DNA of 64,000 bases. It comes from Mycobacteriales bacterium. Its GTDB lineage: Bacteria > Actinomycetota > Actinomycetes > JAFAQI01. Below the pieces are notes generated by a model, which had not been told where the DNA came from, ran no database searches, and was given only the letters and a program-made list of their open reading frames with translations. Where the stretch lies: contig DATAVE010000160.1 in the NCBI GenBank assembly GCA_036267875.1, forward strand, positions 5,420 to 69,419. The letters run 5' to 3'. Both the position numbers and the translations under genes were made by a program. How positions within the stretch are numbered: position 1 is the first letter of the stretch; each line of letters begins with the position of its first letter. This document shows positions 10,498 to 26,229 of this stretch, one piece after another.

Positions 10498-11475
10498 ATG
10501 CCACGCAGCTACGGGGACCCGGACAAGCGAGGCCTGCCGCGGCACATGCGTCTCCTGTTCGGCGCGACCGAGGTGGCCCAGCGGTTCCACCTGGCTCCGT
10601 CCATGGAAGACGTGATCACCAAGCAGTCGCATGCGCAACGCCAGGTCGGCCACCCGGGATGGTGGATGACCTACCGGATCAACCCATCGGTCTCGACGTA
10701 CGAGGTCGCGATCGACAGCCGTGGCGGGCCGCTCGAGCTGCGGATCTACCGGCCGAGCAACGCCGGGCCTGAAGCGCCGATCGTCCTTTACATCCACGGC
10801 GGTGGATTCATGCTCGGCGGGCTCGAGGCGTGCGCCTGGATCTGCGGCGAGATCGCCGCGCAGACCGGCGCGGTGCTCGCCGCGGTCGAGTACCGGCTGG
10901 CTCCGGAGCACCCCTTCCCGGCCGGCCTCGACGACTGCCGCGACGCACTCGACTGGCTGGCGAAGGGGTCGCTGAGCGGCACCGATGCGAACCGCATCGC
11001 GGTTGCCGGTGACAGCGCGGGAGGCAACCTCAGCGCCGCGTTGTGCTTGGAGGCCCGGGACAGCGGCGGTCCGGCGATCGTCCACCAGACGCTGATCTAC
11101 CCGACGCTCGACTCGTCGCTGCGTGGCCAGTCGTGGGTTGACTGCGCAGGCGCCGGCGTCGACCGATCGGCCGGCGAGCAGATGTTCGAGGCGTACGCCG
11201 GTGCGGATCGAGAGAACCCGCTGGTGAGTCCGCTGCACTCGACCGATCTGTCCAACCTGCCGCCGGCGTTCATCGTCAACTCCGACTACGACGTGCTGCG
11301 CGACGACGGTTTTATGTACGCCGAGGCATTGCGTGCAGCGGGCGTCGAGGTGAGGCGCACCAACTACATCCGGGCACCCCACGGACTGCTGTCGATGCCC
11401 CGGCTTTTGCCGGTCGCCCGCCAGATGATCGCCGAGATCACCGGCGAGATCTCCCGCTACCTGCCGGTCGCCTGA
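10498..11475 (+). CDS. alpha/beta hydrolase, HSL-family esterase/lipase
   Basis: HGGGF oxyanion motif (LYIHGGGFMLGG) and GDSAGG nucleophile elbow. Confidence 0.8.
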   Translation: MPRSYGDPDKRGLPRHMRLLFGATEVAQRFHLAPSMEDVITKQSHAQRQVGHPGWWMTYRINPSVSTYEVAIDSRGGPLELRIYRPSNAGPEAPIVLYIHGGGFMLGGLEACAWICGEIAAQTGAVLAAVEYRLAPEHPFPAGLDDCRDALDWLAKGSLSGTDANRIAVAGDSAGGNLSAALCLEARDSGGPAIVHQTLIYPTLDSSLRGQSWVDCAGAGVDRSAGEQMFEAYAGADRENPLVSPLHSTDLSNLPPAFIVNSDYDVLRDDGFMYAEALRAAGVEVRRTNYIRAPHGLLSMPRLLPVARQMIAEITGEISRYLPVA

Positions 11476-11479
11476 ACCT

Positions 11480-12019
11480 ATGCAGCAGCGACGCGCCTTG
11501 CTTGCCCTGGCAGCGGGAGTGTCGCTTGCCCTGGGCGCGACGGGCTGCGCCACGAGCCTGCACGGCCTGGAGTTCCACAACGACAACCGGATGAAGATCG
11601 CCTCGCCGCATCAGAACCAGCTGGTGAGCGACCCCGTCACCCTGAGCTGGACCATGAAGGACTTCGCGGTTGCAGGTCTGGGCGATGGCCCAGTGCAGAA
11701 CGACACCGGATACTTCGCGGTCTTCATCGACCGCGCGCCGGTCAAGCCTGGGCAGACCCTTGCTTCCGTGAGCGAGAACACCCCGTCCTGCCAGCACACG
11801 ACGCTGTGTACGACGAAGTCGTATCTCGCCGGTGAGCAGGTCTACACGACAACCAAGGACGAAATCCGCCTCCCGCCGATCGCCGATCTGCTGAACAACC
11901 ACGAGTCCACGCAGTACCACCAGGCGACGGTGATCTTGATCAACACAGCAGGAGAGCGGATTAGCGAGAGTGCCTGGACGGTGGAGTTCCGGATGCACTC
12001 TTCCGGAGTGAACGACTGA
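11480..12019 (+). CDS. conserved lipoprotein of unknown function (paralog of 23525-24058)
   Basis: Lipobox LGATGCATS. The shared motif LSWTMKDF and its position immediately upstream of the MFS-LivF gene hold in both locus copies. Confidence 0.6.
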   Translation: MQQRRALLALAAGVSLALGATGCATSLHGLEFHNDNRMKIASPHQNQLVSDPVTLSWTMKDFAVAGLGDGPVQNDTGYFAVFIDRAPVKPGQTLASVSENTPSCQHTTLCTTKSYLAGEQVYTTTKDEIRLPPIADLLNNHESTQYHQATVILINTAGERISESAWTVEFRMHSSGVND

Positions 12020-14235
12020 TGGCCGCACGCAAGCAAGCCCCAGCGTCGGCGGCTGCCGCCGCGGATCGGGCTGCGGCGGAGATCGAGCAGACGAAGTCGA
12101 CGCTTCGCGAGCAGGCGCGCAGGACGCTGGGTGTCACAGGCGAGGACAGCACCGAAGCATTCAGGTTGCTGTTGCGGCGCAACCGCTTGTCGGTCTATCC
12201 GATCTTCGCCCTCGGGATGCTCTTCATCTGCGACGGTTTCCAGGGAACCGCGCTGGTCATCCTGTCGCCCAACGTCGCGGCCGCGCTGGGACTCGGCATT
12301 ACCGGGATCGGCGCGGCGCGGTCGATTGGGGCGTTTGCTGCGCTGGCATCGCCGATGCCGATGGCCGCACTGACTCAGCACAAGGCCCGACGGGCGGTGC
12401 TCTGTGTGATCACCGGGATCGCGTGGAGCTTCACGACGCTGTTCACCGGCTTCATCGTCTCCTCGCTCGGCCTGTTCGTGATCCTGGTCCTCGACGGGCT
12501 GAGCACGGGCACGGTGCTGGCACTGCATCCGCCGCTGATCATGGACAGCTACCACCCCTCGATGCGGGCGCGCGCCCTGTCGGCGTACTACGCGCTCGGT
12601 CAGTTCGGTGGCTTGGTCTGTCCGTTGCTCGTCGCGCTGCTGGCGGGCCCACTCAACCTCACCTGGCGTGGCGTCTTCCTCGTCCTCGGCCTCACCTCGC
12701 TGGCGATGTCGCTGCTGGCGGTGTTCCTGCGCGACCCGGGCTTCGGCAAGTGGGACACCGAGAAGCTCCGCGACAGTGTTCATGCCTCACACGGCGAGGG
12801 TGATCAGCTCGCCAAGGACGAGGTCGCGCTCGGCTTCTGGGAGATCGTGCGACGGGTCATGATGATCCCGACGATCAAACGCATCATGGCCTGCGCGGTC
12901 GTCCTCGGGATGTTGCTCATCCCGTTCCAGACCTACATCTCGTTCTTTCTGCTGCAGCGGTGGAACATGGACGCGAGCCACCGTGCGCTGTTCTTCGCCT
13001 ATGCCTCCGGCCTGACCATCATCGCGCTGATGATCTACGGCAGGATCGGAGAGCGGCAGTTCCGACGTACGCCGGCTCAGGTGCTTCGCGTGACGGCTTA
13101 CCTGCAGCTTGCGGGAATCGCCCTGCTGTTGTTCGGTGGGCTGTCGCCTTGGTTCGGCGGGATGCTCGCCGGCTTCGGGCTTGGCTCAGCCGTCGTCTAC
13201 ATCCTGTTTCCGGCAGTCACCCTCACGATCCTGTCGGTCGTTCCGGCGCACATGCGGGCGCACACCCAGTCGGTGTTCACGATCTTCGTCGGCTTGGGCA
13301 GTCTGCTCGGCGCGCTGCTGCTCGGCAACGTCGACGACCAGTACGGACCGACGGTGGCGATCGTCGTGATCGCTGCGGTGGGCTTCTTCGGAGCGGGACT
13401 GCTGGTGAGCGCCGCGAAGTTCGTCGTCGGGGACCTAGATCGGATGATCGACGACATCCTGGAAGAAGAGGAGATCAAGCGGATCACCGCCGCCGGCACT
13501 CACCTGCCGATGCTCGCGTGCCGCGGCATCGACTTCTCCTACGGCCAGCTCCAGGTCCTCTTCGGCGTCGACTTCACCGTCGACGACGGCGAGATGGTCG
13601 CGCTGCTCGGCACCAACGGCGCCGGCAAGTCGACGCTGTTGAAGGTCGTCTCCGGCATCGGAATCCCGAGCAAGGGCAGCGTCCGGTATCGCGGCCAGGA
13701 GATCACCTATCTCGATGCCGAGCGCCGACTTCGCCTCGGCATCACGCAGATCCCGGGCGGCCGCGCGGTGTTCGGACCGATGACGGTCCTGGAGAACCTG
13801 CGCAGCTACGGCTACAGCCTCGATGTCTCCCGGCGCGAGCTCAACCAGGCGATCGACTCCTGCTTCGAGGCATTCCCTCGGCTCCATGAGCGGCGGACGT
13901 CGCTTGCCGCCACGCTGTCCGGCGGCGAGCAGCAGATGCTCGGCCTGTCCAAGGCGTTGATGGTCAAGCCGAAGCTACTGGTCATCGACGAGCTCAGTCT
14001 CGGCCTGGCGCCGGTCATCGTCGGGCAGCTGCTCGAGATGGTGAAGCAGATCAACGCGGCAGGCACCGCCGTCGTGCTGGTCGAGCAGTCCGTGAACATC
14101 GCACTGAATCTCGTCGAGCACGCCTACTTCATGGAGAAGGGCGAGATGCGCTTCGACGGCAAGGCCGCCGACCTGCTCGCCCGTGACGATCTGCTGCGCG
14201 CAGTCTTCCTGCAAGGTGCGTCGGTGGCCGGATGA
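12019..14235 (+). CDS. fusion protein: N-terminal 12-TM MFS-like membrane domain plus C-terminal LivF-type ABC ATPase
   Basis: The first 470 aa show a 6+6 TM pattern with a central cytoplasmic loop. The C-terminus has Walker A GTNGAGKST, signature LSGGEQQMLGLSKAL and Walker B LLVIDELSLGLAP as in LivF. TGATG overlap with the upstream gene. Confidence 0.8.
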   Translation: MAARKQAPASAAAAADRAAAEIEQTKSTLREQARRTLGVTGEDSTEAFRLLLRRNRLSVYPIFALGMLFICDGFQGTALVILSPNVAAALGLGITGIGAARSIGAFAALASPMPMAALTQHKARRAVLCVITGIAWSFTTLFTGFIVSSLGLFVILVLDGLSTGTVLALHPPLIMDSYHPSMRARALSAYYALGQFGGLVCPLLVALLAGPLNLTWRGVFLVLGLTSLAMSLLAVFLRDPGFGKWDTEKLRDSVHASHGEGDQLAKDEVALGFWEIVRRVMMIPTIKRIMACAVVLGMLLIPFQTYISFFLLQRWNMDASHRALFFAYASGLTIIALMIYGRIGERQFRRTPAQVLRVTAYLQLAGIALLLFGGLSPWFGGMLAGFGLGSAVVYILFPAVTLTILSVVPAHMRAHTQSVFTIFVGLGSLLGALLLGNVDDQYGPTVAIVVIAAVGFFGAGLLVSAAKFVVGDLDRMIDDILEEEEIKRITAAGTHLPMLACRGIDFSYGQLQVLFGVDFTVDDGEMVALLGTNGAGKSTLLKVVSGIGIPSKGSVRYRGQEITYLDAERRLRLGITQIPGGRAVFGPMTVLENLRSYGYSLDVSRRELNQAIDSCFEAFPRLHERRTSLAATLSGGEQQMLGLSKALMVKPKLLVIDELSLGLAPVIVGQLLEMVKQINAAGTAVVLVEQSVNIALNLVEHAYFMEKGEMRFDGKAADLLARDDLLRAVFLQGASVAG

Positions 14236-17132
14236 AGTGGGGCCGCTGGGCGATCCGGGTCGCTGCGTTCGCTGCTGCGATTGCGGTGGCGAAGCTCGTG
14301 TTGGTCGAGTTGCACAAGCACGGACACCTCCAGACGTCCGCGACTCCGATGCAGGTCATCGTGCTGGGCGCGATGACCGGCATGACGTACGGGTTGCTCG
14401 GTGTTGGCCTGGTGCTGGTCTACCGAAGCAGCCGTGTCATCAACTTTGCGCACGGGAACATCGGCGCGTTCGGCGCCGCGCTGTTCGGTGTGATCGCCGT
14501 GAAGTGGCATGTGCCGTACTGGATTGCGTTCGTCCTGGCGATGGCGGTCTCGGGACTGGTCGGCGTCGGCACCGAGGCAGCAGCGGTACGCCGGCTTCGC
14601 AACGCGCCGTTGCTGATGAGCGTCGTCGTGACGCTCGGCATCGGGCAGTTCCTGGTCTTCTTCTCCCTCGTCATCAACTCGACGGCGGGTGCCGGCGCGA
14701 CGTACCCGAGCCCGCCGTTCATGCCTACGTTCCACGTGCAGTCGCTCTTCGTGACGCAGGCGTACTCGGGGATGCTGATCCTGTCGCCGATCGTCGTGGT
14801 CGGGCTGGCGGTCTTCCTGCGGGTGAGCAAGTTCGGGCTCGGGCTGCGTGCGGCGGCGGCCAACCAGGAAGCCGCGCGGATGGCCGGCATCTTTGCCGGC
14901 CGGATGTCGTCCCTCGCGTGGGCGATCGCCGGCGCGCTGTCGGCGTTCACAGCGATCCTCATCGCTCCGGCAGAGGGTTTCGTCAGCGGTGACTCGTTCG
15001 GGCCCGACCTGATCCTGCGGGCGATGACCGCGGCCGCGATTGGTCGGATGGACAACCTTCCGATCACGTTCTTCGCGGGTATCGGGCTTGGCGTCGTCGA
15101 GAACGTCCTGCTCTGGGACACCAGCAACTCAGACCTCGTCCAGATGGTGCTGTTCGTCGTCGTCCTCGGCGTGCTGCTGCTGCAGCGGCGGCGTGGCGGC
15201 AGAGGCGAGGAGAAGAGCAACTGGGCCTCGGTCCAGGCGCTGCGGCCACTGCCGGAGCAGCTTCGACGCCTGCCGTCGGTGCGGCTGCTCGGCCCTTTGG
15301 TCATGGTTGTCTTCTTCGGTGTGCTGGCGCTGGCGCCGCTCGCGATCGACAACAGTGGCTCGGTCACCCTCATCTACTTCATCGCGGTTGCGGTCGTCGG
15401 CTTGTCGATCAGCCTGCTGACCGGGCTCGGCGGTCAGCTCACGCTGGGACAGTTCATGGTTGCGGCGGTAGGCGCCGTCGTGTCCTTCCAGGTGTCCAGC
15501 CGGATCGGCGACTTCCCGCTGGCGCTGTTGTACGCCGGACTCGCCGCGGGCGTCGTATCGGTGCTGATCGGATTGCCGGCACTTCGGCTCCGCGGGCTGA
15601 TGCTGACGATCACGACGCTCGCATTCGCGCTCGCCGGGCCGTGGCTGCTCAGCAGGTCGTTTGCCTTGGGTGACGGGGTCAACCCCGGTGCGCCCATTGT
15701 CGATGGCCATCCGCTCGACAACGGCCACAACTACTACTACTTCGCGCTGGCCGTGTTCTTCATCTGCTTTGTCATCGCCTCGAACGTACGTCGCAGTGGT
15801 TTCGGCCGACTACTGATCGCGGTTCGCGACAACGAAGACAATGCCCGTGCGTTCGCGATCCGCGCGACGACCGCGAAGATGCAGGGCTATCTCATTGCCG
15901 GCTTCATCGCCGGCGTCGGCGGCGCGATCTACGCGCATTCGCGTACCGAGATCGACGGCTCGATCTTCGCGAGCAGGACGTCGATCGACGTTGTCGTCAT
16001 GTCGGTGCTGGGCGGCATCTCTTCGCTGGCCGGCCCGATCATCGGGTGCGCCTGGATCATCGGCATCCCCAAGATCCCGAATCTCGGCAACCTCGGGCTC
16101 GCGGCGACGTACTTCGGTGCCACGGCGATGATCCTTTGGCGACCGAACGGCCTCATCAGCTTCGTCGAGGCGCCGCGGCGCATCGTTGTCACCGCGCTCG
16201 CGCGGCTTCACGGCATCGACGGCAAGGCTGCGTTCGCCGACCAACGATCGGTCGCGGTCGTGGCGTCGACCGCCGTCGCAGCTGCCGCGATTCCCGCTCG
16301 TCCGGCCGCACCCGTCCCGCCGCAACGGCTTGCGGTGCGCCCGACGATCCTCGAGGCCCGCAGTCTGATGAAGCGCTTCGGCGGGGTGACGGCGGTCAAC
16401 GACGTGTCGTTCTCGGTCCTTGCTGGTGAGACGCTCGGTCTGATCGGCCCGAATGGCGCCGGCAAGACCACAACCTTCGAGCTGCTCGGAGGCTTCACCA
16501 AGCCCGACCGCGGATCGGTCACCTTCGAGCGGCGCGACGTGTCACACCTCGGGCCCGAGGGACGGGCGCGGCTCGGACTGATCCGATCGTTCCAGGACGC
16601 CGCGCTGTTCCCGACGATGACCGTCGAGGAGACCGTGGTTCTGGCTCAGGAGCGGATCAGCGGTACGTCGTTCATCGGGTCCGTGCTCGCCATCTCAGGT
16701 CGTAGCGAGCGGGCCAAGAAGGCGCGTGCTCGCGAGCTGATCGCGATGCTCGGCCTCGACGCCTATCGGGATCGACAGATCCGCGAACTGTCGACCGGCA
16801 CCAGGCGGATCAGCGAGATCGCGTGTCTGGTCGCACTCGAGCCGACCTGCCTACTGCTCGACGAGCCGTCCTCCGGCATCGCCCAACGCGAGACCGAGGC
16901 CCTCGGCGTTCTGCTCGACGATCTCAAGCGTCAGCTCGACCTGACACTGGTCGTGATCGAGCACGACATTCCACTGATCATGGGAATCTCCGACCGGATC
17001 GTCGCGATGGCCGACGGTGCCGTCATCGCCGAGGGGACGCCGGACGTCGTGCGCAACAACGCGATGGTGATCGACGCATACCTCGGCGGCAGCATCACCG
17101 CGATCGAGCGATCGGGGGTAGGTCGTGCGTAG
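14232..17132 (+). CDS. triple fusion LivH-like permease, LivM-like permease, LivG-like ABC ATPase (HAAT family)
   Basis: 966 aa. The N-terminus has LivH motifs (INFAHGNIGAFGA). The middle is a LivM-like 8-10 TM block, followed by an Ala/Pro linker. The C-terminal ATPase has [16 protein letters not shown] and LLLDEP. ATGA overlap with the upstream gene. Confidence 0.8.
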   Translation: MKWGRWAIRVAAFAAAIAVAKLVLVELHKHGHLQTSATPMQVIVLGAMTGMTYGLLGVGLVLVYRSSRVINFAHGNIGAFGAALFGVIAVKWHVPYWIAFVLAMAVSGLVGVGTEAAAVRRLRNAPLLMSVVVTLGIGQFLVFFSLVINSTAGAGATYPSPPFMPTFHVQSLFVTQAYSGMLILSPIVVVGLAVFLRVSKFGLGLRAAAANQEAARMAGIFAGRMSSLAWAIAGALSAFTAILIAPAEGFVSGDSFGPDLILRAMTAAAIGRMDNLPITFFAGIGLGVVENVLLWDTSNSDLVQMVLFVVVLGVLLLQRRRGGRGEEKSNWASVQALRPLPEQLRRLPSVRLLGPLVMVVFFGVLALAPLAIDNSGSVTLIYFIAVAVVGLSISLLTGLGGQLTLGQFMVAAVGAVVSFQVSSRIGDFPLALLYAGLAAGVVSVLIGLPALRLRGLMLTITTLAFALAGPWLLSRSFALGDGVNPGAPIVDGHPLDNGHNYYYFALAVFFICFVIASNVRRSGFGRLLIAVRDNEDNARAFAIRATTAKMQGYLIAGFIAGVGGAIYAHSRTEIDGSIFASRTSIDVVVMSVLGGISSLAGPIIGCAWIIGIPKIPNLGNLGLAATYFGATAMILWRPNGLISFVEAPRRIVVTALARLHGIDGKAAFADQRSVAVVASTAVAAAAIPARPAAPVPPQRLAVRPTILEARSLMKRFGGVTAVNDVSFSVLAGETLGLIGPNGAGKTTTFELLGGFTKPDRGSVTFERRDVSHLGPEGRARLGLIRSFQDAALFPTMTVEETVVLAQERISGTSFIGSVLAISGRSERAKKARARELIAMLGLDAYRDRQIRELSTGTRRISEIACLVALEPTCLLLDEPSSGIAQRETEALGVLLDDLKRQLDLTLVVIEHDIPLIMGISDRIVAMADGAVIAEGTPDVVRNNAMVIDAYLGGSITAIERSGVGRA

Positions 17133-18147
17133 CCGCCGGCTGGCGATCGCCGCGTGGGTGATGGCGTTCGGGTTTGGCGGCGTAGGCGCCGCGTCGGCGC
17201 TGCCGATTGCCGGGCACGTCAGGGTCGGCGCCCATCTCATCCGCGACAGCCGGGTCGGCGACCGCGCTGAGGCTTGGTACTCGACGCCGTCCGGCTCGCT
17301 CTGTATCCCACTGGTCGGCTGCCTGCCGCTTCCACTGCCGGTAGCGCTGCCACCGCCGTTGAGCTTCCCGGCTGGGACCCTGCATGTCGGCGTGACGCTG
17401 GGCGCTGAGTCTGCGCGCGCCTACGTCGTACCCGACCTGCCTTCCGACGTAGCGTCGCTGCCGCCAACCGGGGTGCTGATCCTGCCGGTCGACAACAGTC
17501 CGCTCGCCGGGACGTTGGACCTCGGGTCGTCGCGGATCAAGGCGTGCCTGACCACCGGGCGAGCGCCGACGCAGCCGACCGCCAAAGCGGCCAGCGCCGG
17601 CTCACCGCCGTCCGTCGATTGCACAGTGTCGACGCCGGCGAGGTACGACGCGGCGATCAAGGCGTTCCGGGTCGACCTCACGCCGTTCCTCGCAAAGTGG
17701 CAACACGGCCGAGCCGACCATGGGATCGCGCTGCTGCCTGGCTTGGCAGGCGCCAGCCGGCTGGCCGAGTGGCAGGTCGCTTTCGACGGCAGGGGATCGA
17801 CCTCGCCGACGGTCTACTCGCTGCTCGCCAACGCCGGGTCGGGCCGGCCGCCGACAACGCCGACCCCGACTCCGAGCTCCCCGCCATCGATTGCGGCCAG
17901 TCCACCTACGATCACCGTCCCGCTACCTGGCGTGAGCGGCGTCGAGCCGCCAGTCGCGCCACCCGCGATCGCGCCGTCGGCGCAAGCTGAGGTCTACCTG
18001 GTCCGCCCTACGGGCTTCCGCTATCCGGCGATCTTCATCGCCCCGCTGGCGATCCTCGCCGGCGTCGTCTTCTTCGGCCGGTTGTTCACCGGCTCGAGTG
18101 TTCGACCACGCAGAACGAGAATGGGAGCTGAGAGCAGCGATGGCTGA
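17125..18147 (+). CDS. secreted Pro/Thr-rich protein with a C-terminal TM anchor (paralog of 19445-20464)
   Basis: Signal peptide, a conserved AEAWYSTP...C..L..C block, a Pro-rich linker and a C-terminal hydrophobic helix. GTG start overlaps the LivHMG stop by 8 nt. Confidence 0.55.
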   Translation: MRSRRLAIAAWVMAFGFGGVGAASALPIAGHVRVGAHLIRDSRVGDRAEAWYSTPSGSLCIPLVGCLPLPLPVALPPPLSFPAGTLHVGVTLGAESARAYVVPDLPSDVASLPPTGVLILPVDNSPLAGTLDLGSSRIKACLTTGRAPTQPTAKAASAGSPPSVDCTVSTPARYDAAIKAFRVDLTPFLAKWQHGRADHGIALLPGLAGASRLAEWQVAFDGRGSTSPTVYSLLANAGSGRPPTTPTPTPSSPPSIAASPPTITVPLPGVSGVEPPVAPPAIAPSAQAEVYLVRPTGFRYPAIFIAPLAILAGVVFFGRLFTGSSVRPRRTRMGAESSDG

Positions 18148-18469
18148 TCTAGGTACTGAGCGTCGGCAGCCGTGGCTGCGAGCGATCACCGATCCGGCAT
18201 CGACCCTGCCCGTCTACCTGGGCGTGGTGGTCGCGGCTGTCGGGTTCGTGCTGCTCGTCATCGGCTGGTCCGACGTCGCGGGGACGGTCGACGTCGGACG
18301 GCAGATGCCGTACCTGATGTCGACCGGACTGCCGGGCATCGCGCTGGTGATGGTCGGACTGGTTGTGGTGAACATCAGCATTCGGCGTCAGGACAGCGCC
18401 GAGCGCGCCCGGCAGATGAGCGCGCTGACCGAGACGCTCGACAAGCTGCGGGCGTCGGACTCGAAGTGA
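18140..18469 (+). CDS. small 2-TM membrane protein (GW-motif family), member 1
   Basis: 109 aa with two hydrophobic helices (VVAAVGFVLLVIGWS; LPGIALVMVGLVVV) followed by an RRQD charged tail. 8-nt overlap with the upstream gene. Paralogous to 19161-19448. Confidence 0.5.
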   Translation: MADLGTERRQPWLRAITDPASTLPVYLGVVVAAVGFVLLVIGWSDVAGTVDVGRQMPYLMSTGLPGIALVMVGLVVVNISIRRQDSAERARQMSALTETLDKLRASDSK

Positions 18470-18741
18470 GTCGGCTGCGCGCGGTTGCGGTGCTGGCGGC
18501 GATCTTCGTCGTCGGCTTCGTGGCGTTCGGCTGGGCTTGGCACGGCGCCCGCCACGCGACGTACGTTCCGCTGCAGGCGCCGTGGGTGATCTCGGGAGGA
18601 CTGGGCGCGATCGCGCTGGTCGGGCTCGCGATCGCCGCGTGGCACATCGACCTCGCGCGCCGCGACGACATCAAGCATCGCTCCGATTGGGATGACTTCA
18701 CCCAGGACCTCAGCGAGGCACTGGCCGAGCGCCAGACCTGA
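18466..18741 (+). CDS. small 2-TM membrane protein, member 2
   Basis: GTG start overlapping the upstream stop. Same architecture (TM-GW-loop-TM-RRDD tail). Paralogous to 18796-19164. Confidence 0.45.
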   Translation: MSRLRAVAVLAAIFVVGFVAFGWAWHGARHATYVPLQAPWVISGGLGAIALVGLAIAAWHIDLARRDDIKHRSDWDDFTQDLSEALAERQT

Positions 18742-18765
18742 TCGGCGGTGCTAGTAGGCGCCTTC

Positions 18766-18775
18766 CCAGATCTGG
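18766..18775. repeat. perfect 10-bp palindrome CCAGATCTGG on the symmetry axis between the convergent locus copies
   Basis: Read directly from the sequence. Lies in the 54-nt gap between the stops at 18741 (+) and 18796 (-). Confidence 0.5.
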
Positions 18776-18795
18776 CGTCCGCCGTTGGCGAGATG

Positions 18796-19164
18796 CTACT
18801 TCTTTCTGGTGCGCGCCGGCTTGGCCGGTATGGCGAGCTGCGCGACGGCCGATCGAAGCTCGCGGGCGAAGCCGGCAAGCTCGTGCACATGCCGCGCCTC
18901 TTCGCGGCGGCTCAGATGCGCCGACAGCGCCGCGGCCGAAAGCCCAGCAAGAGCCAGTCCGCCGATCCCGCCGGAGATCAGCCACGGCAGCTCGCTCGCG
19001 ACATCCCGGGTGTGGTCATCCCCGACGTAGCCGGCGATCATCAGGCCGAACCCGGCAAGGACCAGCAGGGTGAGGATCACCGTCGCACGAACGCCCGGGT
19101 CGAGCAGGCTGGCCACCCAACGGGGCAGCGTCAGCGTGACCTGCTCGCGTCCCTTGTCAGTCAT
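18796..19164 (-). CDS. small 2-TM membrane protein, member 2' (copy B)
   Basis: Start MTDKGREQVTL; helices ILTLLVLAGFGLMIAGY and ISGGIGGLALAGLSAAAL. ATGA overlap with the upstream gene. Confidence 0.45.
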   Translation of the reverse strand: MTDKGREQVTLTLPRWVASLLDPGVRATVILTLLVLAGFGLMIAGYVGDDHTRDVASELPWLISGGIGGLALAGLSAAALSAHLSRREEARHVHELAGFARELRSAVAQLAIPAKPARTRKK

Positions 19165-19448
19165 CGACTCTCGATCGAGGACCGGAGGTCGTGCAGCGCG
19201 TCGGTCAGGGCCGCCATCTCGCGCGAACGCTTGGCGCCGTCCTGTCGGCGGGCGGCGACGTTGATGACGACCAACCCGACCATGACCAGTCCGATGCCGG
19301 GAAGGCCCGCGGACAGGACGTAGGGAACCTGCTGCCAGGAGTTGGGCTTGCCCGCGGCTTCTGACCAGCCGATGAGGATCAGCGCGAACCCGGCGAGGGC
19401 CAGCACGATGCCGACGTACGTCGGGATCCGGGACTCTGGCTCCGTCAT
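19161..19448 (-). CDS. small 2-TM membrane protein, member 1' (copy B)
   Basis: Start MTEPESRIPTYVGIVLALAGFALILIGWSE; its ATG overlaps the stop of the upstream gene. About 60% identical to 18140-18469. Confidence 0.5.
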   Translation of the reverse strand: MTEPESRIPTYVGIVLALAGFALILIGWSEAAGKPNSWQQVPYVLSAGLPGIGLVMVGLVVINVAARRQDGAKRSREMAALTDALHDLRSSIESR

Positions 19449-20464
19449 GACTGGTGTCTCCTTGGTGTGGCATCGGATGTGAAGACTCGTACGAAGAAGA
19501 CCGCGCCGAGCAACATCAGCAGCGGCACGATGAACACGACGGGATAGCGGAAGCCGCGGCCGACCGTGGTCGGGTAGGCGACCTCGGTCTGCGGTGCGAT
19601 CTCGGGCGCACCGGCGGGCGGCACCTCGACTGTGGTGGTGCCCGGCAAGGTAACGCCCGGAATCGCTGGGGCCACCGTCGCGCCTGACGGCGTCGGCATC
19701 GGCACGATGGGCGTGCTGCCGCCCGGGCTCACCGATGCGCTGGTCGTGATCAGTGAGTGGATTCTCGTCGTCGGTGTTGCCGTCGTGTGGGCCGCGAAAG
19801 TGACCAGCCACGTCGAGGTCAGGGACTTGTCTGCAGTGCTTGGGCTGGGGATCAAGGCGATCCCGTCGCGCGGGCGACCGATCTCCCATCCCCGCAGGAA
19901 CGGCGTGAGATCGAGGGTGAAGGCGTTGTGCTTCGCGTCGTACTTCAGCGGTGCGTTGACGAAGCAGTCAGTCTTCGGAAGCGCGCCGGTGCCTCCAGAC
20001 GGTGCGTCCGGAAACTTCTGAGTCACCGCGCAAGCCTCGATCTTCGCTGTCGCCGGCGAGATGGTGCCCGCCGTGGGACTGGTGTCGATCGGCAGGACCA
20101 TCTGGCCGTGCGCGTCCGTGCCCTTGTGCACCGCGCTCAGGTCAGGCAGCACATAGGCGCGCTCGGATTCCTGGCCGAGGATGTTGCCGACCCGGATCGA
20201 GTTCAGCGGGGCGAGCGAGAGCAGCTTCGAGACGATCGCGCCGAGCTGCGGGCACAGCGGGATCGACGCGCACTTCGGGATCGGCAACGTGGTGTACCAG
20301 GTCTCGGCCACGTCGGGCACGCCGTTCGTCGAGGCGGGCGGCTGCGCGACGGAAGTGGCGTGGAAAGGGTTGGCACCGATCGACATCGCGGCGGCCGGGG
20401 TCAACGGCAATACGGCGACGCCGACCGCGACTGTGGCGACCGCGATACGTGCGAGGCGGGTCAT
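19445..20464 (-). CDS. secreted Pro/Thr-rich protein with a C-terminal TM anchor (copy B)
   Basis: Start MTRLARIAVATVAVGV overlaps the SBP stop (ATGA). Shares the AETWYTTLP...C..LC block and a C-terminal anchor FIVPLLMLLGAVFFV. Confidence 0.55.
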   Translation of the reverse strand: MTRLARIAVATVAVGVAVLPLTPAAAMSIGANPFHATSVAQPPASTNGVPDVAETWYTTLPIPKCASIPLCPQLGAIVSKLLSLAPLNSIRVGNILGQESERAYVLPDLSAVHKGTDAHGQMVLPIDTSPTAGTISPATAKIEACAVTQKFPDAPSGGTGALPKTDCFVNAPLKYDAKHNAFTLDLTPFLRGWEIGRPRDGIALIPSPSTADKSLTSTWLVTFAAHTTATPTTRIHSLITTSASVSPGGSTPIVPMPTPSGATVAPAIPGVTLPGTTTVEVPPAGAPEIAPQTEVAYPTTVGRGFRYPVVFIVPLLMLLGAVFFVRVFTSDATPRRHQS

Positions 20465-21972
20465 CCGATCGCCTGCTCGCCGGAGGTGTACTGGAAACAC
20501 TTGCAACCTGAGGAGTAGGCACCCATGCGGATGGCGTCGACCCCGTCTGAGCGGTTGGCGGTGTCGACCCCGAACGTCTGATCGGAGTGGTAGGACGAAC
20601 CGACTGAATGTGTCGCGGCGACGAAGGTGCTGCGGGTGAGCGCCTGGCCGGCCGGAATCGCCGCGACGACCGCGTCGAGATAGTCGAACTCATCGCAGAT
20701 CTGGATCGTTCCGGCCTTCTCGTTGGCGGTCGTGATCGGTTGGCCGTGGGTGTGCATGTAGGACAGGCAGGCATTGCCGCCGGGGCGGATGCTGCTCGTA
20801 TCTGCGACATCCTGCGCGGGGATCCAGCCGACGAACTCCGCTCCCGCCAGCTCCCGCGCGGAGATGTTCGAGGCGAGGTCACCCAAGGGCTCGTCACTGG
20901 AAAGGGCGTACTTCGGGTAGTAGCCCTGCGGACCTGCCTCGAGGCCGAAGCCGGCCGAAAGAAAGCCGTTGTTCTCGACGAACATCAGGTTGGTGATGCC
21001 CTCGGAGCGGAAGCGCAGGTCCGCGCCCTCCATCTGCGTGAGCAGCGCGGTGAGGTCACCGGTCGAGGCGACGTAGTGCAGCGCGATCTTGTCCTGAACA
21101 TCGATGTGGCGGGCCCGAAGCTCCGCTTCCAGGACCTTCTCGCCGGCGACGTACGGCGCCGTCTCGTAGTAGAGGATTCCGACCTTCGCGCCCGGTTGGA
21201 ACCAATGGGCTGCCACCAGTCGAGGAACCTCGATCTTCGCGAGCCGATCGAGGCTGATCGAGTTCGGGAAGACGGCTCCGGACAGCGACGCCAGGTCGCT
21301 GTCGGTGTATCCGGTGACGTTGGCGTTGACGATCCCGGCGACGCCACCGCTTAGTGCGCAGCGCAGGAAGTTGTCGGTCATCCCGAAGTCGAACACGACC
21401 TGTACCGGGTGGTCCTGCGTGAACTCGTCGCAGGCGCCCTGCTCGTACGTCGACTGCGAGGTGTTCGGGTTGATGTCGTAGAAGTAGGGCTTGATCGGGT
21501 GGCCGGACAGCCCGCCGGCCTTGTTGATCTTTGCGATCTCCAGGTCAGCGACCGCGCGCCCGTCCGCGGAAGCGAGGCCCTTGCCGATCCCGCTGAGGAC
21601 CGTCGAGCTGGCGGCGGCGTCGAGGTATGGGAACCCGATCGTGATCGGGGTGTGCGCGCTGACGGCCGGTCCGGTCGGCGTTGCCGAGCTAGCGCGCGTG
21701 GGTGAGCTGCCGGCCGCGATGGTCGTTGTGGCGCCTTGGGCGGGCAGCACATTGATCGAAGGGCCTGCACTGGAACCGGCGACGCTCGGAGTGCCCGTCG
21801 TGCTTGCACCGCTGGTTGGCACAGCGACCGTCGTGGGAGTTCCGCCGGCCGTGATCGTCTGGACCTGAGCGTCCTGGGTGCCGACAGCACGGGGCTCGAG
21901 GGTGGACCCGCAGGCGACCAGGGAGAGCATCACGATCGTGCCTACCGCGGCTCGGTGAAGCGAGTGACTCAT
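20461..21972 (-). CDS. lipoprotein, LivK-like substrate-binding protein B1
   Basis: Start MSHSLHR...LSLVACGS overlaps the upstream stop (ATGA). Thr-rich linker, PBP type-I domain with the FTQDH motif. C-terminal CKCFQYTSG. Confidence 0.8.
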   Translation of the reverse strand: MSHSLHRAAVGTIVMLSLVACGSTLEPRAVGTQDAQVQTITAGGTPTTVAVPTSGASTTGTPSVAGSSAGPSINVLPAQGATTTIAAGSSPTRASSATPTGPAVSAHTPITIGFPYLDAAASSTVLSGIGKGLASADGRAVADLEIAKINKAGGLSGHPIKPYFYDINPNTSQSTYEQGACDEFTQDHPVQVVFDFGMTDNFLRCALSGGVAGIVNANVTGYTDSDLASLSGAVFPNSISLDRLAKIEVPRLVAAHWFQPGAKVGILYYETAPYVAGEKVLEAELRARHIDVQDKIALHYVASTGDLTALLTQMEGADLRFRSEGITNLMFVENNGFLSAGFGLEAGPQGYYPKYALSSDEPLGDLASNISARELAGAEFVGWIPAQDVADTSSIRPGGNACLSYMHTHGQPITTANEKAGTIQICDEFDYLDAVVAAIPAGQALTRSTFVAATHSVGSSYHSDQTFGVDTANRSDGVDAIRMGAYSSGCKCFQYTSGEQAIG

Positions 21973-23462
21973 CCGATCGGCTGCGGACCGGAGGTGTACT
22001 TGAAGCACTTGCAGCCTTCGTCGTACGCACCCATCCGAATCGCATCGGCTCCGTCGGAGCGGCTCGAGGTGTTGACGCTCAGCGCGTTGTCCGACTTGAA
22101 CGACGACCCGACAGCGTGGGTCGCCGCGACGAAGGTGCTGCGGGTGAGCGCCTGACCGGCAGGGATCTTCGCGACGACGGCTGCCAGGTAGTCGAACTGC
22201 TCGCAGATCGCGATCGAGCCCGCAATCTCGTTCGGGGTCGACATCGGCTGCCCATGCTGGTGCATGTAGGTCATGCAGGCCTTGCCGCCAGCCGGGATGT
22301 CACTCGTGTCGGGGACATCCTCGGACGGCACCCATCCCACGAACTGGGCGCCCTCGAGCTCGCGGGCGGAGACGTTCGCGTCGACGTTGCCGAGCGGCTC
22401 GTCGCTGGTGAACGCGTACTTCGGGTAGTAGCCCTGAGGTCCCGCCTCCAGCCCGAAGAAGCCCGACAGGAAGGCGTTGGTCTCGACGAACATCATGTTG
22501 GTCACGCCCTCGGTGCGAAAGCGCAGATCTGCACCCTGTGCCTGGGTCAGCAGCGTGGTGAGGTCGCTCGTCGACGCGACCGGGTGCATCGCGATCCGGT
22601 CCTTCACTGCGATGTGGTTGGCGGCGAGGTCGGACTCCAGGTCCTTCTCCGCGGTGATGTACGGCGCGGACTCCTCGTAGAGGATGCCGATCTTGGCGCC
22701 GGGCTGGAACCAGTGCGTCGCGACGAGGCGCTGCACCTCGATCTTGGCGAGCCGGTCCAGGCTGATGCCATCCGGGTAGACCAACCCCGGCAGCGAGGCC
22801 AGGTCGGCCGAGGTGAGCCCAGGCACGCCTGTGTCGATGATTCCGGCGATGCCTCCTGACAACGCACACCGCTGGAAGTTGAGACTCATCCCCGGATCCA
22901 TGTCGATCTGGACCGGGTGGTCCTGGGTGAACTGGTCGCAGGTGCCCTGCTCGTAGGTCGCCTGAGGGGTGTTCGGGTTGATGTCGTAGAAGTACGGCTT
23001 GATCGGATGCCCGCTCAGGCCGCCAGCCTTGTTGATCCGCGTTATCTCGAGCTCGGTGACCTTCAAGGTGTCCGCTGAAGCCAGACCCTTGCCGATCCCG
23101 CTGAGGACGGATGAGCTCGTCGCCGCGTCGATGTAGGGAATGCCGACGGTGATCGGCGTGTGGTCACTCACTGTTGGGGCGCTCGATGTCGAGCCGCCGG
23201 TCGTCGGCTCGCCGCTGGTCGCGATCGTGGGCGTCGCGCCATCGGTAGGGAGTACGTCGACCGACGACGGGGTCGTGCCAGGCGCTGAGGTGGTCGTGAC
23301 GACCGATGGCCCAGTGGCGCTCGTCGGCGTGCCGGCGCCCTGGATCACCTGCACTTGCGAGCCGGATGTGGCGACACCACGAGGCTCGAGTGTGGAGCCG
23401 CAGGCCGCTAGCGAAAGGGCCGCGACCGCGACGAAGACCGGGCCCATTAACCGCCGCGACAT
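21969..23462 (-). CDS. lipoprotein, LivK-like substrate-binding protein B2
   Basis: Preferred start MSRRLMGPVFVAVAALSLAACGS; an alternative GTG lies 24 nt upstream. Same domain. C-terminal CKCFKYTSGPQPIG. Confidence 0.8.
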   Translation of the reverse strand: MSRRLMGPVFVAVAALSLAACGSTLEPRGVATSGSQVQVIQGAGTPTSATGPSVVTTTSAPGTTPSSVDVLPTDGATPTIATSGEPTTGGSTSSAPTVSDHTPITVGIPYIDAATSSSVLSGIGKGLASADTLKVTELEITRINKAGGLSGHPIKPYFYDINPNTPQATYEQGTCDQFTQDHPVQIDMDPGMSLNFQRCALSGGIAGIIDTGVPGLTSADLASLPGLVYPDGISLDRLAKIEVQRLVATHWFQPGAKIGILYEESAPYITAEKDLESDLAANHIAVKDRIAMHPVASTSDLTTLLTQAQGADLRFRTEGVTNMMFVETNAFLSGFFGLEAGPQGYYPKYAFTSDEPLGNVDANVSARELEGAQFVGWVPSEDVPDTSDIPAGGKACMTYMHQHGQPMSTPNEIAGSIAICEQFDYLAAVVAKIPAGQALTRSTFVAATHAVGSSFKSDNALSVNTSSRSDGADAIRMGAYDEGCKCFKYTSGPQPIG

Positions 23463-23477
23463 TGGTTGATAATCCCC

Positions 23478-23493
23478 CTGTAGCACTCTACAG
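23478..23493. promoter_or_regulatory. palindrome CTGTAG-N4-CTACAG in the divergent promoter region of copy B
   Basis: Perfect 6-bp arms in the 63-nt gap between divergent starts 23462 (-) and 23525 (+). Confidence 0.35.
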
Positions 23494-23524: not shown

Positions 23525-24058
23525 ATGGTCCGGTTGCGGGGCGCTCTATGCGTCACGCTCGGGCTTGCGATCTTCGGACTGAGCGGCTGCGCAACCAGCC
23601 TTGCTGGCCTGGATTTCCGAACCGACAAACGGTTGTCGTTCATCGAGCCGCATAGTCGTGAGCAGGTCAAGCTGCCCGTGCACCTGGCATGGACCATGAA
23701 GGACTTCACCCCGGCCGCGCCCGGTTCCCAGCCACCGACCAAGACCGCGGGCTACTTCGCGATCTTCGTCGATCACACTGCGATCAAGCCGGGGCAGTCC
23801 ATGCGCGCGGTTGCTCACGGCGACTCGTTTTGCGAGTCCAATCCGAAGTGTCCGGATCGCGGCTATCTGGCGGAGCGACAGATCTATACGACGACCGCGA
23901 CGTCGTACGTGCTGCACAACGTGCTGCCGATCACGAACAACGACGAGCACGTCCAGCTGCACGCGGCGGTCATCGTGCTGATGGACACGGCGGGTAACCG
24001 CATCGGCGAGAGCTCATGGGAGATCGACTTCCGCACGGTCAACGAGAGTGACACGTGA
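23525..24058 (+). CDS. conserved lipoprotein of unknown function (copy B)
   Basis: Lipobox GLSGCATS and the shared motif LAWTMKDF. Paralog of 11480-12019. Confidence 0.6.
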   Translation: MVRLRGALCVTLGLAIFGLSGCATSLAGLDFRTDKRLSFIEPHSREQVKLPVHLAWTMKDFTPAAPGSQPPTKTAGYFAIFVDHTAIKPGQSMRAVAHGDSFCESNPKCPDRGYLAERQIYTTTATSYVLHNVLPITNNDEHVQLHAAVIVLMDTAGNRIGESSWEIDFRTVNESDT

Positions 24059-26229
24059 GCGAGCTCACCACCGACGCGATGCGCGAGCGGGCGCGGGCAA
24101 CACTGGGCGTCTCGGGTGACGGTCACAAGGAGCGGTTTCGTGACGTCGTACGTCGTGAGCACCTGTCCTACTACCCGATCCTTGCGCTCGGGCTGCTGAG
24201 CGTCGCGGACAACTTCCAGGGCTACGCGTTCACCGTCCTGACTCCGGACATCAGCCGCACCCTCGGCCTGACGATCGGCGCGATCCTGGTCGGCGTCGCA
24301 CTCAAGGGATTCGCCACTGCGATCGCGCCGCTCCCGGTCGCCGCGCTGTCGCAGAACCGCGCTCGTCGCGCCTTGCTCTGCATCATCACCGGTCTGGCGT
24401 GGAGCATCCTCACCCTGACCAGCGGCTTCGTCATCTCGCTGGCCGGGCTGATCACGGTCCTTGTCCTCGACGGGTTGAGCACCGGCAGTGTCACGTCGTT
24501 GCACGCGCCGCTCGTGATGGACAACTACCCGCCCCCGATCAGAGTGCGCGCGATGTCGTCCTACGCCGCTTTCCAGCTGCTGGGCAGCGTGGCGTCGCCA
24601 CTGCTGGTCGGCCTGCTCGGCGGCATCGCCGGATTCACCTGGCGTGGGGTCTTCTTGATCCTCGGCGGGATGTCGGTGCTGATGACGGTCGCCGCTCTCG
24701 GCTTGCGTGACCCGGGCTTCGGCAAGTGGGACACCGACCAGCTCAAGGCGAGTGTCCGGGAGGAGACCGGCGCAACGGTTCCTGCGGCGCAGGCCGACGC
24801 GCTGTCGGCGCAGGACGTCGCGCTCGGCTTCTGGGAGATCTGCCGGCGGATGCTGCTCATCCCGACCAACCGTCGGCTCTACGCAGGCGCTGCAACCTTC
24901 GGGATGTTGAGCATCCCGCTCACCGCGTTCCTGTCTTACTTCCTCTCGCAGCGTTGGAACCTGGGCGCCGGACAGCGCGGGCTGTTCTTCGCCTTCTACT
25001 CGTTCACCGGCGTAGTCGCGATCCTGCTGTACGGCGGTCGCGGCGAGCGGCAGTACCGCGAGTCGCCGTCGAAGGTGCTGCGAGCCGGCGGCATCGCGCT
25101 CGCGATCGGCGTCGTACTCGCCGCGGTCGGTGCGGAGATGCCGGTGTTCGGCGCGATGCTCGCGATGTTCGGCCTTGCGGGCGCCTCGATCGCGGTGCTG
25201 CTGCCGCTCCTCTATATAGCGCTGCTGTCGATCGTCCCGGCGAACATGCGACCGCACGCTCAGGCCCTGGTCGCGATCTTCGTCGCGATCGGTGGACTGC
25301 TGGGTGCGCTGCTGCTCAGCGGATTTCAGAGCCAGTTCGGGCTGAAGGGTTCGCTCGTCGCGCTTGCGATCCCGGGCGTCATCGGGGCACTCATCGTGGC
25401 CAGCGCGGGGTCGTTGATCGAGGCCGACCTGGACCGGATGATCGACGCGGTCCTCGAAGAGGAGGAGATCCGGCAGCTGCGGGCAGCGGGCAGCCACCTG
25501 CCGATGCTCGCCTGCAAGGGCGTCGACTTCTCCTACGGTCAGCTGCAGGTGCTGTTCGGCGTCGACTTCACCATCGACGACGGCGAGATGGTCGCGCTGC
25601 TCGGGACCAACGGCGCGGGCAAGTCGACGCTGCTCAAGGTCATCTCGGGAATCGGGCTGCCGTCGGCAGGCAGCGTGCGATACCGAGGCGAGGAGATCAC
25701 CTACCTCGATGCGGAACGGCGGCTGCGACTCGGTATCACCCAGGTGCCCGGCGGACACGCGGTCTTCGGACCGCTGACCGTGATCGAGAACCTTCGCACC
25801 TACGGCTACTCGCTCGGCGCTGACCGCAAGCGCGTCGAGGCCGGGATCGACACCTGCCTGAATACCTTCCCGCGACTCGAGGACCGTCGAAACTCACTCG
25901 CCAGCACGTTGTCCGGTGGCGAGCAGCAGATGCTCGGACTGTCCAAGGCGCTGATGATCAAGCCCAAGCTGCTGCTCATCGACGAGCTGTCGCTCGGCCT
26001 TGCGCCGGTGATCGTTGGACAGCTCTTGGAGCTGGTCCGGCAGATCAACGCCGAGGGCACCGCAGTGGTGCTCGTCGAGCAGTCGGTCAACATCGCACTC
26101 AACCTTGCCCACCACGCGTACTTCATGGAGAAGGGCGAGGTTCGCTTCGACGGACGCAGCGCCGACCTGCTTGCCCGCGACGACCTGCTCCGTGCGGTCT
26201 TCCTGCAGGGCGCAGGAGCTCAGAAATGA
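24055..26229 (+). CDS. fusion protein: MFS-like 12-TM domain plus LivF-type ABC ATPase (copy B)
   Basis: Collinear with 12019-14235. ATPase motifs GTNGAGKST and LSGGEQQMLGLSKAL. GTGA overlap with the upstream gene. Confidence 0.8.
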   Translation: MSELTTDAMRERARATLGVSGDGHKERFRDVVRREHLSYYPILALGLLSVADNFQGYAFTVLTPDISRTLGLTIGAILVGVALKGFATAIAPLPVAALSQNRARRALLCIITGLAWSILTLTSGFVISLAGLITVLVLDGLSTGSVTSLHAPLVMDNYPPPIRVRAMSSYAAFQLLGSVASPLLVGLLGGIAGFTWRGVFLILGGMSVLMTVAALGLRDPGFGKWDTDQLKASVREETGATVPAAQADALSAQDVALGFWEICRRMLLIPTNRRLYAGAATFGMLSIPLTAFLSYFLSQRWNLGAGQRGLFFAFYSFTGVVAILLYGGRGERQYRESPSKVLRAGGIALAIGVVLAAVGAEMPVFGAMLAMFGLAGASIAVLLPLLYIALLSIVPANMRPHAQALVAIFVAIGGLLGALLLSGFQSQFGLKGSLVALAIPGVIGALIVASAGSLIEADLDRMIDAVLEEEEIRQLRAAGSHLPMLACKGVDFSYGQLQVLFGVDFTIDDGEMVALLGTNGAGKSTLLKVISGIGLPSAGSVRYRGEEITYLDAERRLRLGITQVPGGHAVFGPLTVIENLRTYGYSLGADRKRVEAGIDTCLNTFPRLEDRRNSLASTLSGGEQQMLGLSKALMIKPKLLLIDELSLGLAPVIVGQLLELVRQINAEGTAVVLVEQSVNIALNLAHHAYFMEKGEVRFDGRSADLLARDDLLRAVFLQGAGAQK

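Follow-up and report, generated by a model that had tools for sequence, protein, structure and literature searches.

Liv-type importers of the HAAT family (TC 3.A.1.4) are among the commonest nutrient transporters of soil bacteria, and their design, in five parts, is taken to be fixed. Elsewhere, KdpF, AcrZ, CydX, TRAP DctQ and TTT TctB are short, operon-encoded and often translationally coupled proteins that have been proposed or shown to stabilise or tune large subunits, and in the Mce operons of Mycobacteriales small membrane proteins (Mam/Mas, LucA), associated with the transporter or needed for it, are encoded downstream of the importer genes. To our knowledge, the classical Liv systems of E. 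coli and rhizobia contain no small hairpin protein with two transmembrane segments (2-TM), no TM-anchored protein resembling a carbohydrate-binding module (CBM), no counterpart of the lipoprotein that we call p180 and no MFS–LivF fusion. A full-text literature search likewise returned no paper describing accessory subunits of a Liv-type transporter or an MFS–LivF fusion. Here we describe such a locus, in two copies (A and B), in a window of 64,000 nucleotides (nt), the whole stretch of DNA analysed, from a Mycobacteriales bacterium (contig DATAVE010000160.1). Each copy carries a trio of genes, one for a proline-rich anchored protein (Pro) and two for small 2-TM proteins (mini1 and mini2; locus tags VHW74_15610–15620 for the window trio proteins). 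At a probability of roughly 0.55, we read the trio as a membrane and surface module that is an optional accessory to one actinobacterial clade of Liv-type importers, and we infer that it associates physically with the transporter. That the genes are dedicated accessories of this clade of transporters is a weaker claim and a far safer one.

The transporter itself resembles the LivHMGF importers in having two BPD_transp_2 domains and LivG-type and LivF-type ATPases (E = 1.4e-63 and 3.3e-57, respectively); the lipoproteins encoded beside it may be distant relatives of the Peripla_BP_6 and UrtA binding proteins. The minis, by contrast, are unrelated in sequence to the known small subunits; the best similarity, between TctB and a mini of the second locus type described below, was well below the cut-off (E = 0.031). 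They also differ from those subunits in combining two TM segments with a long cytoplasmic helix, in forming a paralogous pair and in being optional for their transporter family. The Mce system belongs to a different superfamily (MlaE/YrbE and Mce proteins), its small proteins have other topologies, and Pfam and NCBIfam scans revealed no similarity.

The six trio genes form two convergent sets with the order Pro–mini1–mini2, whose 3′ ends face each other over a spacer of 54 nt. On the forward strand lie ProA (17125–18147; 340 amino acids (aa)), mini1A (18140–18469; 109 aa) and mini2A (18466–18741; 91 aa, GTG start); on the reverse strand lie ProB (19445–20464; 339 aa, with the same architecture as ProA), mini1B (19161–19448; 95 aa, ATG at 19448 after AAGGAGA) and mini2B (18796–19164; 122 aa). 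Trio A is directly 3′ of the LivH–LivM–LivG fusion gene (LivHMG) and trio B is directly 3′ of a pair of genes for lipoproteins resembling substrate-binding proteins (SBPs), exactly as the original prediction had it. Its claim that all junctions are start/stop overlaps of 4 or 8 nt also held for all six: 8 nt for LivHMG/ProA and ProA/mini1A and 4 nt for mini1A/mini2A in copy A, and 4 nt throughout copy B (ATGA for SBPb2/ProB and for ProB/mini1B, then mini1B/mini2B). The corresponding proteins of the two copies are homologous, with identities of 39% for the Pro pair (E = 1e-50), 55% for the mini1 pair (E = 8e-39) and 34% for the mini2 pair (E = 2e-7), and mini1A and mini2A are 29% identical to each other (E = 7e-9).

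Because the window has a G+C content of about 67%, open frames alone mean little, and spurious open reading frames (ORFs) are common in such DNA; wholly or partly within the 22 kb that we scanned lie 102 ORFs that reach 80 aa or more. We drew the gene map with a filter on G+C at third codon positions (GC3) together with translations, assigned domains with Pfam and NCBIfam, and checked start codons. The reading that the small ORFs are chance open frames rather than genes was refuted by the conservation data, and we give it practically no weight. In-frame GC3 was 0.82–0.89 across the six trio genes, against 0.47–0.62 at second positions. The ratio of nonsynonymous to synonymous substitution rates (dN/dS) was 0.19–0.52 for Pro, mini1 and mini2, compared with 0.18 for LivHMG (three ortholog pairs). 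The two mini groups are kept down to about 25–35% identity across classes of Actinomycetota, and the helical model predicted for the mini is confident. All six trio ORFs are thus real genes under purifying selection. Coding signal (GC3, dN/dS) and conserved co-location (76 of 80 loci, below), whose absence had been named in advance as counting against the trio, were both found.

The evidence that ties the trio to the transporter comes from a survey of other genomes. With the mini1 alignment as query, a scan in which each GTDB species was represented by a single genome recovered 126 relatives, and we annotated the best 80 of these loci by comparing six-frame ORFs with the window proteins and domain models (phmmer and hmmsearch). 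All 80 loci were from Actinomycetota (metagenome-assembled genomes (MAGs) of Mycobacteriales/Frankiales, Acidimicrobiia and Nitriliruptorales), with Pseudofrankia asymbiotica and Frankia sp. AiPa1 as cultured hosts. Liv permease or ATPase genes flanked the mini in 76 of them, and the other 4 were at contig ends. Two locus types could be distinguished. Type I (27 loci) has the MFS–LivF and LivHMG fusions, with p180 in 26, two minis in all 27 and Pro in 25. Type II (49 loci) has ordinary unfused Liv genes, neither MFS nor p180, and a single mini in 43 loci. Minis are therefore not exclusive to the MFS–LivF fusion, since 49 of the 80 loci pair them, typically one mini, with unfused Liv genes.

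Linkage was also evident from the Pro side. A metagenome scan using Pro motifs and an alignment of 8 Pro sequences gave 25 loci; minis and/or the transporter accompanied Pro in 19, and the remaining 6 were contigs of at most 3.3 kb. Four Pro homologs on long contigs each lay beside p180, MFS–LivF, LivHMG and two minis. Altogether, trio and transporter are tightly linked in more than 100 loci, among which at least five gene orders occur: LivHMG–Pro–mini–mini; LivHMG–mini–mini–Pro; Pro–p180–MFS–LivF–LivHMG–mini–mini; LivHMG followed by a reverse-strand MR_MLE epimerase gene and Pro–M20–mini–mini; and the SBP–SBP–Pro–mini–mini of the window. Because the linkage was kept through such extensive rearrangement, it is selected rather than inherited synteny, and this stability is the signature of dedicated accessory components. 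The proposal that the trio encodes new transporter components thus stands as far as conservation and tight linkage are concerned; strict co-conservation and a restriction to systems with MFS–LivF are not supported.

We next turn to the proteins themselves. When twelve minis from five loci were compared, they separated into two groups of orthologs, mini1 and mini2. Three features do not vary: G-F in TM1, the proline of the Q-x-P-[YW] that ends the short outer loop, and the S-x-G that gives TM2 a small-residue face; an arginine after TM2 is nearly invariant. There are 7–10 lysines and arginines after TM2 compared with 1 in the loop, and because basic residues cluster in this way, we assign both termini to the cytoplasm. 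An AlphaFold2 model of mini1A (predicted local distance difference test (pLDDT) score of 80.8) has TM1 at residues 23–47, a loop at 48–55 and an unbroken helix at 56–108, in which TM2 is predicted to extend as a charged cytoplasmic helix of about 28 residues (pLDDT > 90). The minis are thus two paralogous N-in/C-in 2-TM hairpins. The original prediction had correctly recognised four paralogous 2-TM proteins, although their lengths are 91–122 aa rather than 95–122 aa. Its TM–GW pattern fits three of the four, mini2B having GY, and its RRQD/RRDD motif after TM2 fits three (RRQD, RRQD and RRDD), with RREE in the fourth.

Sequence searches of Pfam, NCBIfam and the PDB with the minis found nothing meaningful. 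Two candidate identities were rejected. Some homologs carry a DUF202/YidH label from JGI, but none of the four window minis matched PF02656; one type II mini scored E = 0.69 (10.8 bits, cut-off 23.4). A KcsA-type 2-TM channel was suggested by a sole PDB match (E = 0.012), which covered TM2 and the C-terminal helix only, and the inter-TM loop of the minis, at about 8–15 residues, is without a TVGYG-type filter motif.

The type II minis (L036–L085; for example, L067 9941–10471, L077 9902–10480 from Pseudofrankia asymbiotica and L038 9887–10438) occur in Frankiales, Acidimicrobiia and other Actinomycetota. They abut the transporter genes: in most loci the mini stop lies 8–60 nt before the start of the LivHM alignment, and in an alternative arrangement the mini alignment begins 11–44 nt past the ATPase stop. 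These proteins have the same hairpin core, followed by a linker and a C-terminal motif YH(R/L)PxC…(about 20–25 aa)…PCxxC. The tail, which the window minis lack, resembles, at the motif level only, the N-terminal zinc site of Ada (YCRPSC…PCKRC). An assignment of the tail as an Ada zinc-binding domain was rejected, there being no Pfam or NCBIfam match at E ≤ 10.

These features bear on the alternative that the minis are a regulatory or sensor module that gates transport through the ATPases or a cytoplasmic factor, in the manner of trans-inhibition or inducer exclusion, with Pro as the extracellular input. The long, conserved and highly charged cytoplasmic helix and the metal-binding-like Cys/His motif of the type II tail would suit such a role, and an optional module suits a regulator better than a core subunit. 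On the other hand, no signalling domain is recognisable, core and tail being without a Pfam or NCBIfam match, and there is no kinase or transcription-factor partner specific to mini loci; PucR-type regulators are present in loci of either kind. We regard this alternative as quite unlikely.

A long frame in locus L059 (17963–20224, reverse strand) is of separate interest. It is free of stops and joins an MFS domain, a divergent mini-like hairpin and a YHRPEC…PCVLC tail. The MFS part is homologous to the MFS domain of MFS–LivF (E = 6e-11), GC3 is high through the linker, and a type II Liv operon with a mini of its own is about 8 kb away. The frame is a putative natural MFS–mini fusion, which hints at contact between the MFS domain and the mini.

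Pro has a different architecture. ProA consists of a signal peptide, an all-beta ectodomain (about residues 44–235), a proline-rich stalk (236–300), a C-terminal TM segment (303–321) and a basic tail; in the AlphaFold2 model, residues ~40–238 are all-beta (pLDDT ~90), 239–300 are disordered and 301–322 are helical. The N-terminal block, conserved cysteines and C-terminal anchor noted at the outset from ProA and ProB proved to be general features in an alignment of 29 homologs. From N- to C-terminus, these share a signal peptide that lacks a lipobox; the invariant AE-x-WY block (AE[AT]WY[ST]T); two conserved Cys pairs (C60/C66 and C141/C166); the ectodomain motifs TLHVG, ESARxY, GxLxLPV, DLTPFL and GIALLP; a Pro/Ala/Thr-rich segment; and a C-terminus composed of G-F-[RQ]-Y-P, the TM helix and R-L-F-T-x-D. 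The signal peptides of ProA and ProB end in AASA or AAAA and contain no lipobox cysteine, unlike p180 and the SBP-like proteins, which carry G-C or A-C lipoboxes. Pro is thus a type I membrane protein with a stalk of about 60 residues and a C-terminal TM anchor.

The modelled Pro ectodomain is a beta-sandwich of the DNRLRE/CBM96 type, a carbohydrate-binding-module fold, so that the earlier view that no function could be assigned gives way to a predicted fold. Comparison structures include an alginate-binding CBM96 (PDB 7vbo; PMC9971899) and a chondroitin-sulfate-binding CBM (PDB 8wab). The likeness extends to a reminiscent motif, TLHVG…ESARxY..PDL……G.L.LPV, at an overall identity of 11–12%. 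Known DNRLRE/CBM96 domains are modules of secreted enzymes. The ectodomain of Pro, by contrast, stands alone and has two conserved disulfide pairs; it is joined to a proline-rich stalk and a TM anchor, and its gene accompanies those of a transporter. A PDB sequence search with the Pro profile gave no match, and searches of Pfam and NCBIfam with the six trio proteins, at E ≤ 0.01 and at E ≤ 10, gave nothing usable. The family is nevertheless populous. An exhaustive hidden Markov model search found 790 representatives at 50% identity (317 at E ≤ 1e-30), nearly all of them full length at 300–390 aa. A word-indexed search found 31 Pro and 60 mini clusters, an undercount for Pro; all were labelled ‘hypothetical’, and their sources were metagenomes, of soil among others, and MAGs named ‘Mycobacteriales bacterium’, to which the window itself belongs; ten sampled Pro representatives were all metagenome proteins without a name. 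Two longer homologs (P0152 and P0171) had no extra domain, and their extensions look like mis-called starts.

Conservation of Pro was highest in the pre-TM motif and the TM helix (0.65–0.68), compared with 0.56 in the ectodomain and 0.42 in the stalk. Such a pattern would not normally be seen in a passive anchor and points to a specific membrane partner or, less likely, to a sorting signal. Sortase and exosortase signals share the layout of motif, TM segment and basic tail, and in Pro this layout lies at the extreme C-terminus and is more conserved than the ectodomain, as would be expected if a dedicated processing enzyme recognised it and Pro were cleaved and then wall-attached or released instead of serving as a membrane partner of the minis. 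However, none of the 29 aligned homologs has an LPXTG-like motif, the examined loci contain no conserved sortase-like or rhomboid-like gene, and the post-TM tail, of 12–20 residues with LFTxD, is longer and more specific than is typical. We consider a sorting signal improbable, although it would not be exclusive of the other alternatives.

We then considered the distribution of the transporter in the absence of the trio. Among eight MFS–LivF relatives sampled from the transporter side, three had the full trio close by (L089, L090 and L091), and L118 is a locus of the L091 type interrupted by a contig end. Several observations here and above weigh against the accessory-module reading. Neither Pro nor a mini lies within 10 kb of the transporter in Kribbella sp. 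NBC_01484 or K. capetownensis, and a soil contig (L117) has the core without the trio on the downstream side, the only side examined. An Acidimicrobiales contig (L088) has the core and the minis and no Pro, and Pro is present in just 9 of the 49 type II loci. Because the core exists without it, the trio is not required for basic transporter function. As for the proteins, fold searches with the mini returned generic hairpins only; ProA and ProB did not match the DNRLRE (NCBIfam) or CBM96 (Pfam) models even at E ≤ 10; DNRLRE/CBM96-like folds also occur in non-carbohydrate settings, such as TGF-beta prodomains and BamH; and the suggestion that Pro binds a ligand, possibly polymeric or wall-bound, is drawn from the predicted fold only. 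As for the L059 fusion, its frame was drawn from stop to stop, and the match to the minis is weak (E = 2e-5). Dependence is thus one-way: the trio adjoins a Liv transporter wherever the contig allows, often with translational coupling, and the core occurs without the trio in cis. The strict co-conservation that had been claimed is contradicted by the two Kribbella species, the soil contig and the Pro-less L088.

In L088, a called gene of 36 aa (16613–16723) occupies the usual position of Pro, in front of the gene for an M20 peptidase, and may be what is left of a Pro gene that has been lost.

Such a distribution could also be explained if the trio were a separate surface module, co-regulated with the transporter in a shared scavenging pathway without being a subunit of it, with Pro binding or tethering an extracellular polymer, or anchoring the membrane to the wall, and the minis as its membrane partners. 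A CBM-like fold on a wall-spanning stalk would fit this explanation, as does the occurrence of the core without the trio; moreover, the trio can lie up to 4–5 kb from the transporter and be interleaved with peptidase genes (Pro–M20–mini–mini). Yet most type II minis occur without Pro and abut the permease gene, the window genes have start/stop overlaps with LivHMG or SBP genes, and the module is kept across very different catabolic contexts. We therefore judge a separate module to be unlikely, if somewhat less so than a regulator, and favour an accessory module of the transporter.

How might such an accessory module be built? In our proposal, mini1 and mini2 would pair through the small-residue faces of TM2 and their cytoplasmic helices to form a four-helix membrane bundle whose cytoplasmic part is a coiled coil; the single mini of a type II system would homodimerise. 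The Pro TM helix could pack on the mini bundle to give a five-helix unit, which would dock on the membrane domains of the transporter (LivH/LivM and/or MFS). The stalk would raise the Pro ectodomain into the cell wall, where it might bind a ligand that is polymeric or associated with the wall, and possibly anionic, or might position the lipoprotein binding proteins. The mini tails would lie beside the ATPase domains and could stabilise or tune them.

A stronger version, in which the minis and Pro are true structural subunits, is one that we hold only tentatively and would not bet on at present. Together with p180 and the LivF-fused MFS, they would then form an envelope-engaging, multi-component uptake machine of at least eight modules, with a wall-reaching CBM-like receptor, a hairpin pair bridging the membrane and ATPase domains, and the mini as a hallmark of types I and II. 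This would be a new ABC importer architecture in the thick-walled Actinomycetota, and it would give a first handle on how an importer is coupled to the wall or to regulation on the cytoplasmic side. In either case, two populous families without a Pfam or NCBIfam model (Pro, at least 790 clusters; mini, at least 126 relatives) recur beside this Liv clade. Both deserve family models and a name, which would clear several hundred ‘hypothetical proteins’ of soil metagenomes. Cultured type II hosts (Pseudofrankia asymbiotica and Frankia sp. AiPa1) and the trio-less Kribbella make comparative experiments possible.

The transporter core has unannotated parts of its own. The p180 protein, which belongs to the core and not to the trio, is a lipoprotein of about 175–180 aa encoded always directly upstream of MFS–LivF, with start and stop usually overlapping or abutting (for example, L086 9464–10000 and L119 9475–9999). 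Besides its lipobox, a Cys pair and two motifs, GYFAVFVD and HxxTVVLMDTxGHRIGESAW, are conserved. The protein had no Pfam match, a PDB profile search gave noise only, and hhalign indicated that p180 and Pro are unrelated. Because p180 is kept even in the Kribbella that lack the trio, as well as in 26 of the 27 type I loci, it is a more invariant unannotated component than the trio; both Kribbella loci carry p180, MFS–LivF, LivHMG, SBP and peptidase genes. In MFS–LivF, a full-length 12-TM-type MFS domain precedes the LivF-like ATPase. This domain is nearest to the ACS/DgoT family (TIGR00893, E = 1.6e-16), with similarity also to OPA families, and has at least 278 relatives, nearly all with MFS_1 and ABC_tran and including proteins from cultured Kribbella species. 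PGAP labels the fusions simply ‘MFS transporter’.

In copy A, the core and its neighbours lie on the forward strand: two SBP-like lipoprotein genes (7397–8914 and 8911–10485; lipoboxes), an Abhydrolase_3 esterase gene (10498–11475), p180A (11480–12019; 179 aa, lipobox GC), MFS–LivF (12019–14235; Pfam MFS_1 and ABC_tran, NCBIfam LivF) and LivHMG (14232–17132; 966 aa; two BPD_transp_2, ABC_tran and BCA_ABC_TP_C in Pfam, LivG in NCBIfam). Copy B consists of two divergent operons. The reverse-strand operon is headed by the SBP-like pair (21969–23486 and 20461–21972; lipoboxes) and closed by trio B, and the forward-strand operon contains p180B (23525–24058), MFS–LivF (24055–26229) and LivHMG (~26234–29146), the latter two identified with Pfam, and a gene for a beta-lactamase-fold protein (29143–30405). 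The four SBP-like lipoproteins of the window had no Pfam match and showed faint similarity to UrtA (E ~0.004–0.007); their homologs at other loci match Peripla_BP_6. At about 500–525 aa, they form very divergent pairs with long Ser/Thr/Ala/Pro-rich linkers after the lipobox. The best 60 matches in a PDB sequence search with LivHMG all cover the ATPase part. HHH_5/HHH_2 matches were present in the LivHMG proteins (1036–1069 aa) of L004, L005, L088, L090 and L117; these families are absent from the 966-aa LivHMG of copy A, and Pfam reported none for copy B.

The genes around the systems differ between loci. The window and its nearest relative, L001, are flanked by genes for beta-lactamase-fold and Abhydrolase_3 esterases, acyl-CoA ligase, acyl-CoA dehydrogenase, MaoC hydratase, thiolase, and TetR and LacI regulators. 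Most other type I loci (L004, L005, L088, L089, L090 and L091) are flanked by a PucR-type regulator (GGDEF_2 and HTH_30), an MR_MLE epimerase with DUF8230_C, M20, M19 and M55 peptidases, beta-lactamase-fold proteins (some with DUF3471) and Amidohydro_3. We take this set of peptidases and epimerases, from what is generally known of the families, to be one for the catabolism of peptides containing D-amino acids, and such a gene neighbourhood suggests that the type I systems in this context may import D-amino-acid-containing, perhaps cell-wall-derived, peptides. One locus lies among rhamnosidases. Because the trio persists over these differing catabolic contexts, it is probably not an element of substrate specificity; an architectural or regulatory module is more likely.

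For the spacer between the two trios (18742–18795), RNA folding gives paired stem-loops (−35.2 kcal/mol, z = −2.6 relative to shuffled sequences), and there is no T-run. The spacer may, on this modelled fold, act as a bidirectional terminator, for which we regard the evidence as weak. A promoter scan of the region yielded no promoter-like site, and a terminator scan gave two sites, both within Pro genes and in a number near chance expectation. Finally, genes with a methyl-accepting chemotaxis signalling domain lie near the locus both in the window (36965–38536, forward strand) and in L001 (16590–19749), which is unusual for classical Mycobacteriales.

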